From Escherichia coli (lineage in GTDB: Bacteria > Pseudomonadota > Gammaproteobacteria > Enterobacterales > Enterobacteriaceae), in NCBI RefSeq assembly GCF_016903815.1, contig NZ_CP069973.1: a stretch of 64,000 bases of DNA; one strand, 5' to 3'. Shown piece by piece: positions 21,552 through 28,096 of this stretch. Under the pieces are notes generated by a model. It did not search any database and was not told the origin of the DNA. It was given only the letters and a program-made list of their open reading frames with translations. Both the position numbers and the translations under genes were made by a program. Each line of letters starts with the position of its first letter. Positions within the stretch are counted from its first letter, which is position 1.

Positions 21552-21600
21552 ATACTATAGGGGGGTATGCTATATGTCAATGCATACCCCCCTATAGTAT
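21552..21600. promoter_or_regulatory. FrmR operator: 19-bp inverted repeat with G/C tracts
   Basis: ATACTATAGGGGGGTATGC - 11 bp - GCATACCCCCCTATAGTAT directly upstream of frmR; G/C-tract palindromes are typical of CsoR/RcnR-family operators. Confidence 0.85.
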
Positions 21601-21709
21601 ATAACACTGGAGAATAAAATTTATCCGGTGAATGTAGTCGGATAACAAAAAGTAAAGAGGGGCCTAATCGACAGGGAAGGCCGCCCCGGATAGCGGGCGG
21701 CAGAAGCAA

Positions 21710-22483
21710 TCAGAATTTCCAGGTCAGATGGGCTGCAAATTGCAGACCGTTATAATCATCAGTTGGGGTGTCGTACCACACTTTACCTGCCGTCAGCCCG
21801 AGATTAAGTTGCTCAGTCAGCGGTTGAATACGTTGCAAACTGACGCTCTTCATGCTGCCGTAGCGTGTTTCTGGCGTCCAGTCATAGGTGTAAGCGCCTG
21901 TTCCGCGGCTTAGCCATAGTTGCGTATAACCAGTGCCGCGCGGGTCATTCAGACGCACGGAAATCATATTGCTGTAACTACCACCTGCATCGCTGGAGTC
22001 ATAATGGGTATAGCGGTAGCTGGAGATCACCGGGCCAGTATAGAGTGATACGCCGCCTTGCCAGGCATCGACTTCGACATCATCGTAATATTTCGTGTAG
22101 CGATAACCGGTCGTGAAAAGCGTTTTTGGCAACAGTGCCAGGTTAATATCCTGACGAAAATCCTGGCGGGCAAAGACCGGCGTATTATCCGCAAAGGCAA
22201 TACCCGTTCGGGTTGTCAGCCAGTTATTCCATTTATACCAGACCGCACCCTGACCGCGAGTGGCATTGAAATGTTCAGTTTCATAATCACGACGCCCCTG
22301 GGAAAGATTAAAAAGCAGCGTTGCGTTTTCAACTTTCGCCACCAGTTCAGCATACGCTAAATTACGGTTGCCATGATCGCCAGAATAATCGGTAAAATCG
22401 TAGCCCGCGGTAATGGAAGTTAACCCGGCATAAGCGGGCAATGCGCTAAAAATTGCTGCCGCTAATAACGTCCGTTTTATCAT
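21710..22483 (-). CDS. yaiO: Outer membrane beta-barrel protein YaiO
   Basis: 257 aa with signal peptide and C-terminal ...HLTWKF. Confidence 0.9.
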   Translation of the reverse strand: MIKRTLLAAAIFSALPAYAGLTSITAGYDFTDYSGDHGNRNLAYAELVAKVENATLLFNLSQGRRDYETEHFNATRGQGAVWYKWNNWLTTRTGIAFADNTPVFARQDFRQDINLALLPKTLFTTGYRYTKYYDDVEVDAWQGGVSLYTGPVISSYRYTHYDSSDAGGSYSNMISVRLNDPRGTGYTQLWLSRGTGAYTYDWTPETRYGSMKSVSLQRIQPLTEQLNLGLTAGKVWYDTPTDDYNGLQFAAHLTWKF

Positions 22484-22484
22484 T

Positions 22485-23195
22485 TTAATCTCCTGTACGG
22501 ATAAGTTCTTGTCGGAGTGAATAAGTTCCGGTAGGTAAATTACGTTCTACAATCACGCGCGGGCCAAGTTGCGTGTTCGGGGAAATAATTCGCCCAGGCA
22601 AAATAATAACTTGTACGCCAAGGCGTGAACGCTGCCCGATATAACAACCTAATTTATCGCATTCGGTAGCGATAATTCCCTCTGGAGTTCGAACAGACAC
22701 GGGCTGTTGATCCAGACGATGATTACTGGTACGTACTTGTGCGCCCAAATATGCCTGGTTTGCAACTACCGAGTCGGCGATAAAGCATTGCGGACCAATC
22801 GTTGCTTCCGCTTCAATAACCGCATTTTTAATTTCGGTGGCAAAACCAATTTTTACGCCATTGCTGATTATTGTGCCAGGACGAATAAACGCATAATTAC
22901 CTATCAGGCAGTTTGCGCCAATCACTACCGGACCCTGAATAACGGCACCGTGACAAATACGGGTATTCGCGCCGATAACAACTTCACCTGCAGTTTCATC
23001 AATAATTACCTGGTCTGCAATCTGAATATTTTTCTCTTTAACATTAAGCTTCAGAAAGTTTTTCAGTTCCTGTGACAGAAGGTTGGGAATAAGCGGTTGA
23101 CGCTTCCACCAGTGCGGAATAGCGGGTGGGTTTGTCGCGCTGAGGTTCGCGTCCAGTAAAAAAGGCAATAAGTCCATAAATAATCCAGATGGCAT
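22485..23195 (-). CDS. yaiX: Hexapeptide-repeat (left-handed beta-helix) acyltransferase, uninterrupted
   Basis: 236 aa ORF with repeated [LIV]G hexapeptide pattern; 5' end overlaps yaiP by about 150 bp, so true start is uncertain. Confidence 0.7.
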   Translation of the reverse strand: MPSGLFMDLLPFLLDANLSATNPPAIPHWWKRQPLIPNLLSQELKNFLKLNVKEKNIQIADQVIIDETAGEVVIGANTRICHGAVIQGPVVIGANCLIGNYAFIRPGTIISNGVKIGFATEIKNAVIEAEATIGPQCFIADSVVANQAYLGAQVRTSNHRLDQQPVSVRTPEGIIATECDKLGCYIGQRSRLGVQVIILPGRIISPNTQLGPRVIVERNLPTGTYSLRQELIRTGD

Positions 23196-24240
23196 AAGCT
23201 AATAATACATACACAACGGAAAGCGGCGCTAAAGGCACCAACAACCAGCAACGATGAAACCAGGCGCTAAAAGCACCAATAACACAAACTACGCCGACCC
23301 AGATAAGCGGAAACATTGCCAACACCACACCATGCGGCCCGGTGGTGATGAATTCATTAAACCAGGTAGTGAGATAAATCCCAACGCCATAAAGCACAAC
23401 CAACAGCATAGGAAATATACTGAAGATACCGAAGCGGCTAAATAAAAGCCTTTTATGCAGGCGCATACAGACCGCGTAGCCCACAATCCAACGCCGCCAG
23501 CGACGCCATTCCTCACGCGGGCTGTTGCATTCCTGTGGGTATACGATGCAGCGATTCGCCTGCCGAATACGATAGCCGTTTGCCACCAATGTCCAGGTGA
23601 GATCAAGGTCTTCGACTTTAGTACGATCAGAGAAACCGAACTTACGCAATACATCAGTACGGAACATCCCGCAGGCACCGCTGATAATAAACGGTGCGCC
23701 GCCCAGGAGCTGCTGTAGCGTGCGCTTCATAACAATCATCGGCAACTTTACGGTCGCGCGGATGTGCGGTAACAGACCCGCGCCTTTCAACGCAGTAGAG
23801 GGAATGCCGCCTACGGCATCAGCACCGCGCTCTATTTCTGCCAGCATATAGCCCATTCCGTCTTGATCGGGCGGAACATAGGTGTCGGCATCACTTAAAA
23901 AAACCTGGTCGCAGGTGGCGTAATTGAGGCCATTCATCAGCGCACCACCTTTACCGGTATTTTTTTGCGTGACGGCAATAAAGCGGTCGCCCCATTTGCG
24001 TTTGACTTCCGCCATGACCGCTTCGGTATTGTCCGTGGAGCCGTCGTTAACGCAAATTACCCGGCAAAAATAAGGGTTACGCAGTAGATTATCCAGTGAC
24101 TGTGCCAGACACGGGCCTTCGTTATACGCAGGTATAATGGCGTCAATACAACCTTTTTTTGGGCTGGGCTTACGCCTTAACGTACTCAGGAACCATAGCA
24201 ATATTGCTACGGCCATACATATAAATATCCAGGTTTTCAT
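23044..24240 (-). CDS. yaiP: Family 2 glycosyltransferase, membrane-anchored
   Basis: 398 aa; N-terminal TM, GT2 core (NDGSTDNT, DAD) and C-terminal TM segments. Confidence 0.88.
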   Translation of the reverse strand: MKTWIFICMAVAILLWFLSTLRRKPSPKKGCIDAIIPAYNEGPCLAQSLDNLLRNPYFCRVICVNDGSTDNTEAVMAEVKRKWGDRFIAVTQKNTGKGGALMNGLNYATCDQVFLSDADTYVPPDQDGMGYMLAEIERGADAVGGIPSTALKGAGLLPHIRATVKLPMIVMKRTLQQLLGGAPFIISGACGMFRTDVLRKFGFSDRTKVEDLDLTWTLVANGYRIRQANRCIVYPQECNSPREEWRRWRRWIVGYAVCMRLHKRLLFSRFGIFSIFPMLLVVLYGVGIYLTTWFNEFITTGPHGVVLAMFPLIWVGVVCVIGAFSAWFHRCWLLVPLAPLSVVYVLLAYAIWIIYGLIAFFTGREPQRDKPTRYSALVEASTAYSQPSVTGTEKLSEA

Positions 24241-24249
24241 GCAATTTGC

Positions 24250-24921
24250 TCAAAGAATCATTTTATGAATTACAAAGCCTTCACCCAGATCGCTATTGAC
24301 CTGTTGCCCGCGAAATTGTGCAACTGCACGCAGGCGATCATGACGCATATAATCGCGTCGTTCCTGGCTTTTATGTTTTTTTAATGCAGCAAGTTTGACT
24401 GTGAAATATTCTTCTTTAACGGATTCAAAAACCTGAGGCATAAATGAAAGCCAGGTACTCGGGGTTTCGTAGCCGAGAATTTGTGGAATAGTGCGGCAGG
24501 CAACCATTGAAGCTTGATAAACAGCAAGATGATCCTGATGGCGGTCGGCATCATGCATGGTATATACCCGCATGATTTCAACATCAGAAGGAATTTGATT
24601 TTTAATGATGTCTTCCAGGGCGGAAATCATATCATTGAGCTGCAAATGCGCGCGGGTGTCAGCAAAATTAAGATGAATAGTTTGGTGGCACCCTAATATC
24701 TTTAGGGCGTTGCGCGATTCTTCATGGCGATCGATTATTCCATCTGTGCCAGAGTTGCCGGTAGTCATCACCACGGCTGCGATATAAATTCCTTTTTGCG
24801 CAAGACGAGCAAGCGACGCGCCACAGCCCAATTCTATATCGTCAGGATGTGCGCCAATAGCAAGGATACCCTTTCTTTTATTTGCCGAAGAAAGGATGGC
24901 TGAATCTAAAACCTTATCCAC
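24250..24921 (-). CDS. yaiS: PIG-L/LmbE-family N-acetylglucosaminyl deacetylase
   Basis: ORF with AIGAHPDDIELGCG and HxDH motifs; exact start uncertain. Confidence 0.8.
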   Translation of the reverse strand: MDKVLDSAILSSANKRKGILAIGAHPDDIELGCGASLARLAQKGIYIAAVVMTTGNSGTDGIIDRHEESRNALKILGCHQTIHLNFADTRAHLQLNDMISALEDIIKNQIPSDVEIMRVYTMHDADRHQDHLAVYQASMVACRTIPQILGYETPSTWLSFMPQVFESVKEEYFTVKLAALKKHKSQERRDYMRHDRLRAVAQFRGQQVNSDLGEGFVIHKMIL

Positions 24922-25529
24922 TTAATGACACTCCATTTTATTTATTATACTACAAGCACAACGATGCCCGCAGAGACGTAATCTCTGGCACAGACAGATG
25001 CTAATTTTTAAGTGTTAAAAATTACTGATAGCTGAAAAATAAGGGGCTTTCAAGTACGGGGATACGACTGCGTAATCTTTTATGTAGTTCATATGTTAAG
25101 TGTTTGTGTGTTTGGTTTGTATAGTTATTTTGTTTTATATATTGTATTTAGATGTGATTTAGTTTGTCAATTAATTACATATTAAAAATATGTTCTAGGC
25201 ACAAATATGGATTATATACATTATGTGAATGTATTATGTGGTTGATTGAGAATGATACAGTTATATATGCAATGTGAATATAATGATTTCATTATATGCA
25301 TTGCTGTTAATAAAATAAAAGACATTATGTTCTGCTTGTTTATGCATTAATAAAAATGAAGTGCAGTAACTTACTGAATTGTCAGAGTGGGTGTAATTGC
25401 ATATTTAATCTTTCCTTTGCCGCTTTTTTGCTAAGAATAAAATCATCTGTGCGATAACGACTAATTCTTTTAATGAATGTTTTTATTCCTGAATACTGCT
25501 CCTATAACAAGACAGGGGAGCAGACAATC

Positions 25530-26492
25530 ATGGCAATTTCATCGCGTAACACACTTCTTGCCGCACTGGCATTCATCGCTTTTCAGGCACAGGCGGTGAA
25601 CGTCACCGTGGCCTATCAAACCTCCGCTGAACCGGCGAAAGTGGCTCAGGCTGATAACACCTTTGCTAAAGAGAGCGGGGCGACGGTGGACTGGCGTAAG
25701 TTTGACAGCGGAGCCAGCATCGTGCGGGCGCTGGCTTCAGGCGATGTCCAAATCGGTAACCTCGGTTCCAGCCCATTAGCGGTGGCAGCCAGCCAACAGG
25801 TGCCGATTGAAGTCTTCTTACTGGCGTCAAAACTGGGTAACTCCGAAGCGCTGGTGGTAAAGAAAACTATCAGCAAACCGGAAGATCTCATTGGCAAACG
25901 CATCGCCGTACCGTTTATCTCCACCACCCACTACAGCCTGCTGGCGGCGCTGAAACACTGGGGTATAAAACCCGGACAAGTGGAGATAGTGAACCTGCAG
26001 CCGCCCGCGATTATCGCCGCATGGCAACGGGGAGACATTGATGGTGCTTATGTCTGGGCACCGGCGGTTAACGCCCTGGAAAAAGACGGCAAGGTGCTGA
26101 CCGATTCTGAACAGGTCGGGCAGTGGGGCGCGCCGACACTGGACGTCTGGGTGGTGCGCAAAGATTTTGCCGAGAAACATCCAGAGGTCGTGAAAGCGTT
26201 CGCTAAAAGCGCCATCGATGCTCAACAACCGTACATTGCTAATCCAGACGCGTGGCTGAAACAGCCGGAAAACATCAGCAAACTGGCACGTTTAAGCGGC
26301 GTACCTGAAGGTGACGTTCCGGGGCTGGTGAAGGGGAATACCTATCTGACGCCGCAGCAGCAAACGGCAGAACTGACCGGACCGGTGAACAAAGCGATCA
26401 TCGACACCGCGCAGTTTTTGAAAGAGCAGGGCAAAGTCCCGGCTGTAGCGAATGATTACAGCCAGTACGTGACCTCGCGCTTCGTGCAATAA
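25530..26492 (+). CDS. tauA: Taurine ABC transporter periplasmic binding protein TauA
   Basis: 320 aa from MAISSRNTLLAALAFIAFQAQA (signal peptide); SD GGGGAG. Confidence 0.94.
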   Translation: MAISSRNTLLAALAFIAFQAQAVNVTVAYQTSAEPAKVAQADNTFAKESGATVDWRKFDSGASIVRALASGDVQIGNLGSSPLAVAASQQVPIEVFLLASKLGNSEALVVKKTISKPEDLIGKRIAVPFISTTHYSLLAALKHWGIKPGQVEIVNLQPPAIIAAWQRGDIDGAYVWAPAVNALEKDGKVLTDSEQVGQWGAPTLDVWVVRKDFAEKHPEVVKAFAKSAIDAQQPYIANPDAWLKQPENISKLARLSGVPEGDVPGLVKGNTYLTPQQQTAELTGPVNKAIIDTAQFLKEQGKVPAVANDYSQYVTSRFVQ

Positions 26493-26504
26493 AAGGAGGC
26501 GCAG

Positions 26505-27272
26505 ATGCTGCAAATCTCTCATCTTTACGCCGATTATGGCGGCAAACCGGCACTGGAAGATATCAACCTGACGCTGGAAAGCTGTGAGCTACTGGTGGTG
26601 CTGGGGCCGTCCGGCTGCGGTAAAACCACCCTGCTGAATCTGATTGCCGGTTTTGTGCCTTATCAGCATGGCAGCATTCAACTGGCGGGTAAGTGCATTG
26701 AGGGACCGGGCGCAGAGCGGGGCGTGGTTTTTCAGAATGAAGGGCTGCTACCGTGGCGCAATGTACGGGACAACGTGGCGTTCGGCCTGCAACTGGCAGG
26801 TGTTGAGAAAATGCAGCGACTGGAAATCGCGCACCAGATGCTGAAAAAAGTGGGGCTGGAAGGGGCAGAAAAACGCTACATCTGGCAGCTTTCCGGCGGT
26901 CAACGTCAGCGGGTGGGGATTGCCCGCGCGCTGGCGGCAAATCCCCAGCTGTTATTACTCGATGAACCGTTTGGTGCGCTGGACGCCTTCACCCGCGACC
27001 AGATGCAAACCCTGCTGCTGAAACTCTGGCAGGAGACGGGCAAGCAGGTGCTGTTGATTACCCACGATATAGAAGAAGCGGTGTTTATGGCGACTGAACT
27101 GGTTCTGCTTTCACCCGGCCCAGGCCGCGTGCTGGAGCGGCTGCCGCTCAACTTCGCCCGCCGCTTTGTTGCCGGGGAACCGAGCCGCAGCATCAAGTCC
27201 GATCCACAATTCATCGCCATGCGCGAATATGTTTTAAGCCGCGTATTTGAGCAACGGGAGGCATTCTCATGA
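26505..27272 (+). CDS. tauB: Taurine ABC transporter ATPase TauB
   Basis: Walker [13 protein letters not shown] signature LSGGQRQR. Confidence 0.95.
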
Positions 27273-28096
27273 GTGTGCTCATTAATGAAAAACTGCATTC
27301 GCGTCGGCTGAAATGGCGCTGGCCGCTCTCGCGTCAGGTGACCTTAAGCATTGGCACGTTAGCGATTTTACTCACTGTATGGTGGGCAGTGGCGGCGCTG
27401 CAACTGATTAGCCCGCTGTTTTTACCGCCGCCGCAACAGGTACTGGCAAAACTGCTTACTATTGCCGGACCTCAAGGATTTATGGACGCCACCTTGTGGC
27501 AGCATCTGGCAGCCAGCCTGACGCGCATTGTGCTGGCGCTACTTGCGGCGGTGTTGATCGGCATTCCGGTCGGGATCGCCATGGGACTAAGCCCGACGGT
27601 GCGCGGCATTCTGGATCCGGTAATTGAATTGTATCGCCCGGTGCCGCCGCTGGCGTATTTGCCGCTGATGGTGATCTGGTTTGGTATTGGTGAAACCTCG
27701 AAGATCTTACTGATCTATTTAGCGATTTTTGCACCTGTGGCGATGTCGGCGCTGGCGGGGGTGAAAAGCGCGCAGCAGGTTCGCATTCGTGCCGCCCAGT
27801 CGCTGGGTGCCAGCCGTGCGCAGGTGCTGTGGTTTGTTATTTTACCCGGTGCGCTGCCGGAAATTCTCACCGGATTACGCATTGGTCTGGGTGTGGGCTG
27901 GTCTACCCTGGTGGCGGCGGAGCTGATTGCCGCGACGCGCGGTTTGGGTTTTATGGTCCAGTCAGCGGGTGAATTTCTCGCGACTGACGTGGTGCTGGCG
28001 GGGATCGCGGTGATTGCGATTATCGCCTTTCTTTTAGAACTGGGTCTGCGCGCGTTACAGCGCCGCCTGACGCCCTGGCATGGAGAAGTACAATGA
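27269..28096 (+). CDS. tauC: Taurine ABC transporter permease TauC
   Basis: 275 aa multi-TM permease; 4-bp overlap with tauB. Confidence 0.94.

Follow-up and report, generated by a model that had tools for sequence, protein, structure and literature searches.

Why are the divergent genes yaiS and tauA of Escherichia coli separated by so long and so AT-rich a stretch of DNA, and do the motif copies in it mark regulator sites? We examined this locus in 64,000 nucleotides of contig NZ_CP069973.1 (hereafter the window). Because the yaiS GTG start codon lies at 24919-24921 (minus strand) and the tauA ATG begins at 25530, the spacer occupies 24922-25529 and measures 608 bp. Gene order is frmR, then yaiO, yaiX, yaiP and yaiS (all on the minus strand), then tauABCD and hemB, as in K-12, and the islet genes encode a YaiO beta-barrel, a hexapeptide acetyltransferase, a GT2 glycosyltransferase and a PIG-L deacetylase. 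The answer that we consider probable is a composite divergent control region, in which a Cbl-dependent tauA promoter and a yaiS promoter flank an AT-rich promoter island bound by H-NS. For K-12 the locus, its tauA promoter, the prediction of a yaiS promoter, H-NS binding and promoter-island status are already in print. Features are collected in Table 1.

Table 1. Features of the yaiS-tauA spacer and adjoining DNA, in window coordinates.
Feature	Coordinates	Strand	Details
Segment present or absent among E. coli genomes: yaiO-yaiX-yaiP-yaiS plus spacer up to the tauA -10	21629..25491	.	164 bp in island-free E. coli
yaiS-tauA divergent intergenic spacer	24922..25529	.	608 bp, GC 30%
Conserved yaiS-proximal end of putative leader	24922..24985	-	2/64 differences vs K-12, Fisher p=0.04
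Fast-evolving segment within putative yaiS leader	24986..25085	.	23/99 differences vs K-12, Fisher p=0.002
Counterpart of K-12 promoter island 383994_309 (U00096.2)	25075..25374	.	placed through the K-12 alignment, +/- 2 bp
Segment between fast-evolving segment and motif block	25086..25210		13/125 differences vs K-12, about the synonymous rate
Conserved yaiS promoter block	25122..25181	-	-35 TTGACA 25170..25165, 18-bp spacer, -10 TACAAT 25146..25141
Motif block of the first-pass annotation (ATTATGTGAATGTATTATGTGG, ATATGCAATGTGAATATAATG, CATTATATGCATTG)	25211..25303	.
Most variable segment	25301..25392	.	25/90 differences plus 11 gap columns vs K-12, Fisher p=5e-5
Inferred Cbl-binding region of the tauA promoter	25392..25437	+	from conservation; element CTTTCCTTTGCCGCTTTTTTGCTAAGAA at 25410-25437
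tauA-proximal block	25393..25529		3/137 differences vs K-12, below synonymous, Fisher p=3e-4
tauA core promoter and leader	25462..25529	+	TAATTCTTTTA 25462-25472, -10-like AATACT 25492-25497, Shine-Dalgarno GGGGAG 25515-25520

An earlier reading of the sequence, which we call the first-pass annotation, had described the gap as unusually long and AT-rich, and it was right on both counts. When the roughly 38 intergenic gaps in 40 kb are ranked by length from the annotation of strain 7/2, whose spacer core is identical to that of the window, the spacer comes first, followed by gaps of 525 and 351 bp. Between 25000 and 25500 the GC content is 24-30%, against 45-60% in the flanking genes, and the 400-bp tile starting at 25101 (GC 26%) is the lowest in the whole window. 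A relic of a mobile element was ruled out, the spacer being single-copy (median of one place per genome).

Several features of the neighbourhood are worth recording in their own right. In the window yaiS is an intact ORF of 223 aa in the PIG-L family, starting at the GTG at 24921 on the minus strand and as long as its counterpart in Citrobacter sp. FP75; the K-12 copy is a PGAP pseudogene with an internal stop. Antisense inside the 3' part of yaiS (24250-24921, minus strand) lies the small ORF ykiC (24265-24384, plus strand). K-12 is reported to express it as a small protein (VanOrsdel 2018, PMC6001520), from which the window copy differs by one residue, S15P. Upstream of frmR, a sigma-70-like site TTGACA-17-TAGTAT (21552-21580, minus strand), the second best in 20 kb, sits beside a long GC-rich palindrome, ATACTATAGGGGGGTATGC...GCATACCCCCCTATAGTAT, which may be the FrmR operator.

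We turn to the repeats. The copies at issue are those of ATGTGAAT / TATGCATT, together with three motif strings that the first-pass annotation quoted and that do occur verbatim, at 25220, 25265 and 25290. It had seen in them a repeat organisation pointing to additional binding sites. Set against 200 dinucleotide-preserving shuffles of the spacer, that organisation does not rise above chance. Repeated 7-mers number 43 against 32.7 +/- 7.4 in shuffled sequence (17/200 shuffles reach the observed value) and repeated 8-mers 16 against 10.1 +/- 4.5 (25/200); the longest exact repeat is 9 nt against 9.5 (170/200), and the best 22-nt pair matches at 17/22 positions against 16.1 +/- 0.7 (41/200). Tandem Repeats Finder returned no array in the spacer even at score 30, and a repeat search found two-copy families only, at 73-92% identity: besides short inverted pairs, these are a 22-nt family (77%, copies 49 bp apart) and a 12-nt family (92%). 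ATGTGAAT itself, a string picked after the data had been inspected, occurs twice in 64 kb, both times in the spacer, where 2.9 occurrences are expected for the whole window. The shuffles, the two repeat searches and this count rule out a tandem or dispersed repeat array.

Motif searching gave the same picture. The annotation's idea of extra regulator sites, for which it had proposed motif searches against CysB/Cbl, H-NS and Fis matrices, found no backing here, as matches in the spacer to the consensus sequences of H-NS (tCGwTwAATT), Fis, IHF, CRP and the LTTR box are as frequent as composition predicts. By a simple autocorrelation, the A-tracts of the spacer lack phasing at a period of about 10-11 bp. 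The motif repeats are a by-product of AT-rich composition and not an ordered array of sites, and the locus can serve as a worked example of how AT-rich intergenic DNA yields convincing 'motif repeats' through composition alone.

Conservation was measured by comparing the window with K-12, the B2 strain ABU 83972 and E. fergusonii. As a yardstick against K-12 we used the pooled synonymous divergence of the flanking genes (p=0.114); in the comparison with E. fergusonii these sites have reached saturation (p=0.62). Two segments, 24986-25085 and 25301-25392, diverge from K-12 two to three times above the synonymous rate, the second also carrying a 9-bp indel. Against E. fergusonii two blocks stand out, 25122-25181 (53/60 identical) and the tauA-proximal DNA (32/38 from the -10 to the ATG). 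Among 5426 complete E. coli genomes, the 400-bp core occurs as haplotypes at least 95% identical to the window's (about 580 genomes), about 93% identical (about 455) and about 82% identical (about 3250); the K-12 core is only about 82% identical. Conservation across haplotypes and species tells functional blocks, the two promoters, from filler, and as part of the composite reading as a whole it is probable that sequence-specific function is confined to the two promoters at the spacer ends.

Alternatively, the motif block might be an array of specific regulator sites tuning both divergent promoters, either multiple CysB sites upstream of the Cbl site or sites for an activator or repressor of yaiS. 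Its position would suit such a role, since it lies between the promoters, at -77 to -169 relative to the predicted start of yaiS and roughly -201 to -293 relative to the tauA start inferred below. Degenerate, AT-rich sequence is typical of CysB sites, which fits the block; CysB footprints reportedly lie upstream of the Cbl site in K-12, and because these could overlap the block, some specific binding within it is possible. A RegulonDB-derived text also lists CysB as a repressor of tauABCD (PMC3680503). The block is, moreover, less diverged from K-12 than the two segments beside it (p=0.133 against 0.232 and 0.278). Yet its 12 differences in 90 positions (25211-25300) match the synonymous rate (p=0.133 against 0.114; Fisher p=0.6), while its repetition lies within the range of the shuffles and the LTTR-box, CRP, Fis, IHF and H-NS counts at chance. 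Nor are the repeats well kept in relatives: in 3249 genomes the block reaches about 88% identity, short of the 95% or more seen for the promoter block, and only 52 of 112 columns are identical in E. fergusonii, where indels of 28 and 15 bp break the alignment. K-12 does not retain the second copy of ATTATGTG, and the whole block is missing both in island-free E. coli and in other genera that retain the conserved elements of the tauA promoter core. We therefore regard a site array as unlikely.

At the tauA end, the picture is one of strong constraint. Of the 137 positions from 25393 to 25529, 134 are identical to K-12 (98%), and CTTTCCTTTGCCGCTTTTTTGCTAAGAA, TAATTCTTTTA, AATACTGC (25492-25499), the string ATAACAA and the Shine-Dalgarno region are invariant or nearly so in Escherichia, Citrobacter, Enterobacter and Klebsiella. 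This pattern suggests that the proximal ~138 bp (25392-25529) act as the sulfate-starvation promoter of tauA, which would combine a weak -35, the AATACT hexamer as -10 and an upstream Cbl activator site, with transcription probably starting near 25504. The Cbl footprint reportedly mapped by van der Ploeg et al. in 1997 spans -112 to -68, with the tauA start about 26 nt ahead of the ATG. Taking AATACT as the -10, and so the start at about 25504, would put that footprint at roughly 25392-25436 of the window. Its putative left limit matches the start of the block conserved within E. coli, and its right limit the end of the cross-genus element. Literature text searches on the tauA promoter and its footprints returned nothing specific.

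The comparison with the known Cbl/CysB-dependent sulfate-starvation promoters, namely tauAp and ssuEp, which van der Ploeg is said to have described in 1997 and 1999, points the same way. The proximal 138 bp share 98% identity with the experimentally characterised K-12 promoter, and CTTTCCTTTGCCGCTTTTTTGCTAAGAA, kept across genera in the inferred Cbl region, resembles an element upstream of ssuE, CTTTCTTTAGTTTATTTTCAGAAAAAGA. What differs is that the tauA promoter takes up less than a quarter of its spacer here, and that the motif block falls outside it.

Facing the other way, the spacer carries a site, TTGACA-18-TACAAT (25170..25141), that agrees with 11 of 12 consensus positions and is the best sigma-70-like match in 20 kb. 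In 4033 of 4269 E. coli genomes a 68-bp block around it (25118-25185) reaches 95% identity or more; in E. fergusonii, 27 of the 30 positions from -35 to -10 are retained and the 18-bp spacing is intact. The predicted start lies near 25134, giving a leader of about 213 nt with a Shine-Dalgarno sequence, GGAG (24934..24931), 9 nt ahead of the GTG. The first-pass annotation's suggestion of a promoter for the yaiS cluster is thereby strengthened, all the more as Shimada et al. named the K-12 match, TTGACA-18-TACAAT, as a constitutive RpoD promoter of yaiS and marked the spacer 'HNS' (PMC3946193).

Conservation in this part of the spacer might instead reflect an unannotated gene, either a 30-aa ORF at 25093-25185 (plus strand) or a small or cis-regulatory RNA in the yaiS leader. 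Neither the window nor K-12, where it has 35 aa, interrupts this ORF, and it overlaps the conserved segment 25086-25210, but that conservation is accounted for by the minus-strand yaiS promoter. Its ATG has no Shine-Dalgarno sequence upstream, haplotype changes within it are mostly non-synonymous, and in E. fergusonii a GTG replaces the ATG and a stop follows about ten codons on; we rejected the ORF on this last ground. As to RNA, CACUUAA close to the 5' end of the leader (about 25097-25103, minus-strand RNA) can pair with UUAAGUG (24919-24925) across the yaiS GTG start. This pairing appears in the predicted folds of both the window and K-12, and each partner falls within a conserved block. 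As a whole the fold lacks significance: with z-scores of -0.42 and -0.37 in the two folds, the leader is no more stable than its shuffles. Rfam gave no match in the spacer at E up to 1, which together with the fold scores speaks against a known RNA family or riboswitch in the leader, and the spacer scan found no terminator-like site. A hidden gene or RNA is, in our judgement, extremely improbable.

What, then, occupies the DNA between the two promoters of the composite region? In K-12, Panyukov and Ozoline list '383994_309 yaiS(-)/tauA(+)' among 78 promoter islands (PMC3661553 Table 1). The class, with which Shavkunov's name is also linked, is defined with the program PlatProm: predicted transcription start points must be packed extremely densely over 300 bp or more. 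Its other hallmarks are RNA polymerase binding that yields little transcript, occupancy by H-NS and horizontally acquired neighbours. In the comparison by Panyukov and Ozoline this island carries the mark 'A', for H-NS binding in all ChIP-chip studies compared, and its adjoining genes are predicted to be foreign by three methods (PMC3661553). Mapped to the window, using a coordinate offset of 777 verified against hemB and tauA, the island takes in the motifs of the first-pass annotation. Peaks of genomic SELEX with K-12 RpoD holoenzyme, from which a site TTGAGA-16-TACAAT was assigned to tauABCD (PMC3946193), and with RpoS holoenzyme (PMC5493296) also fall in the spacer. Kim 2012, the one K-12 TSS table that we checked, lists no transcription start in the spacer (PMC3415461 supplement), and its only nearby entry is a 2-read antisense start inside tauA. 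The annotation's proposal of extra nucleoid-protein or regulator sites is thus borne out as far as H-NS occupancy of the K-12 spacer goes, though its argument from repeats fails and regulator consensus matches are at chance. Where it had looked to published binding and start maps, the H-NS, RpoD and RpoS signals are present and a start in the single table consulted is absent; all these binding data stem from the K-12 allele, whose core is about 82% identical to the window haplotype.

The window resembles the K-12 islands in being the same locus with homologous sequence, in its extreme AT content and dense -10-like hexamers, and in its foreign-gene neighbours. Such hexamers occur at 42.8 per kb in the spacer against 7.7 per kb in the window (5.5 times), a density equal to that of the spacer's own shuffles; a strict -35/-10 consensus scan found two promoter-like sites, below the 4.4 +/- 1.9 of the shuffles. 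It differs in haplotype, the window core being about 82% identical to that of K-12, and in the tauABCD-facing SELEX site, which reads TTGAGA-16-TGCAAT in the window (25246-25273) and in B2, a change that deprives the -10 of its key second base. Sulfur-regulon genes neighbour three of the 78 published islands, namely yaiS/tauA, ssuE/elfA and cysB/ymiA (PMC3661553 Table 1).

Taken with the conserved promoters, these data suggest how the composite region may work. The ~300-bp core (about 25075-25374), through its extreme AT content, would present many -10-like hexamers and a platform for H-NS, while the near-consensus site at 25170..25141 would drive transcription toward yaiS; H-NS would silence this strong promoter and the islet under laboratory conditions. 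Because a strongly conserved, near-consensus site has no start in the K-12 table, something arguably represses the yaiS promoter, and the absence of a start is consistent with, if weak evidence for, silencing. By analogy with K-12, the yaiS promoter and islet may be silenced in the window strain too. The likeness to xenogeneic silencing by H-NS includes the low GC content (26% against about 50% in the flanking genes), the patchy islet and a strong promoter that lacks a start in the table checked; the difference is that the region abuts tauABCD, a housekeeping operon that depends on an activator, and that the two share one spacer.

One could also deny the core any role and see in it functionless filler, a scar of recombination or insertion subject to neutral drift and incidentally bound by H-NS and RNA polymerase. 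Segments that evolve at or above the synonymous rate, indels among haplotypes and species, absence of the core from 11% of genomes and tolerance of independent IS1 insertions are all what such filler would show. This account departs from the composite reading only in denying silencing, however, and a conserved near-consensus yaiS promoter without a start in the K-12 table argues for repression; E. coli and E. fergusonii, moreover, have maintained a spacer length of 608-676 bp. We hold pure filler to be very unlikely. The IS1 insertions within the spacer are found in WCHEC4533 (at about 25065) and EC29 (at about 25285), which carry differing haplotypes. The locus is a mosaic of deep haplotypes: dS against K-12 is 0.12-0.18 for tauA, tauB and tauC (25530-28096) and 0.055 for yaiS (24250-24921), and between the B2 and window alleles of yaiS it is 0.38.

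The length of the spacer appears to be bound up with the history of the islet. The yaiOXPS islet and the spacer are absent from 594 of 5426 complete E. coli genomes (about 11%); in these, 305 bp separate frmR from tauA, and the AATACT hexamer marks the exact right junction. The island-free tauA promoter closely resembles that of Citrobacter, while the islet-linked version is common to E. fergusonii, whose yaiS-tauA spacer measures 676 bp. Upstream of the junction the two promoter types align with a score of 59 against 30 +/- 7 for shuffled sequence, mostly through the putative Cbl element. In Citrobacter, Enterobacter and Klebsiella the tauA spacers are about 240-260 bp long, with the same promoter elements and unrelated neighbour genes. 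In these genera, compared along the lines that the first-pass annotation had proposed, the tauA promoter elements are kept, whereas the long AT-rich core and the motif block are missing. Because these genera manage with so short a spacer, some 470 bp would be unneeded for a Cbl-type tauA promoter and would belong historically with the islet.

Like other promoter islands, the spacer adjoins horizontally acquired genes: the islet is patchy, tauA spacers in other genera are short, and the only close relative of YaiS in the species-representative collection, that of Citrobacter sp. FP75 (81% identical, the next being just 48%), is encoded by a cluster at another locus. Travel of the spacer with the islet was rejected, since the AT-rich region upstream of yaiS in Citrobacter sp. 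FP75 is unrelated to it beyond chance. The extra length probably derives from AT-rich DNA that either came in together with the horizontally acquired yaiO-yaiX-yaiP-yaiS islet or expanded next to it.

This history recalls the 'horizontal regulatory transfer' of which Oren et al. reportedly wrote in 2014, and the switched intergenic regions between conserved genes that Thorpe et al. are said to have described with Piggy. As in those cases, identity is 96-99% in the flanking genes but 72-77% in spacer segments, and two tauA promoter types segregate in the species. Unlike them, replacement here is coupled to a 3.9-kb islet that some genomes have and others lack, and its haplotypes can still be aligned. 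The junction at the tauA -10, the two promoter types and the segments that diverge faster than synonymous sites are minor new points that may interest those who study regulatory variation in E. coli.

A bolder reading would be that E. coli harbours two anciently diverged tauA control regions, one short, ancestral, Citrobacter-like and next to frmR, the other linked to the islet, that alter the response to sulfate starvation. We give this only a slim chance. Were it true, everything upstream of the -10 would have been replaced in the islet-linked type, and a fast-evolving island bound by H-NS would have been set against the Cbl site; the segments that outpace synonymous sites could then reflect selection on silencing strength and not drift. 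If spreading of H-NS or the diverged Cbl and -35 region alters induction, strains of E. coli would differ heritably in taurine scavenging.
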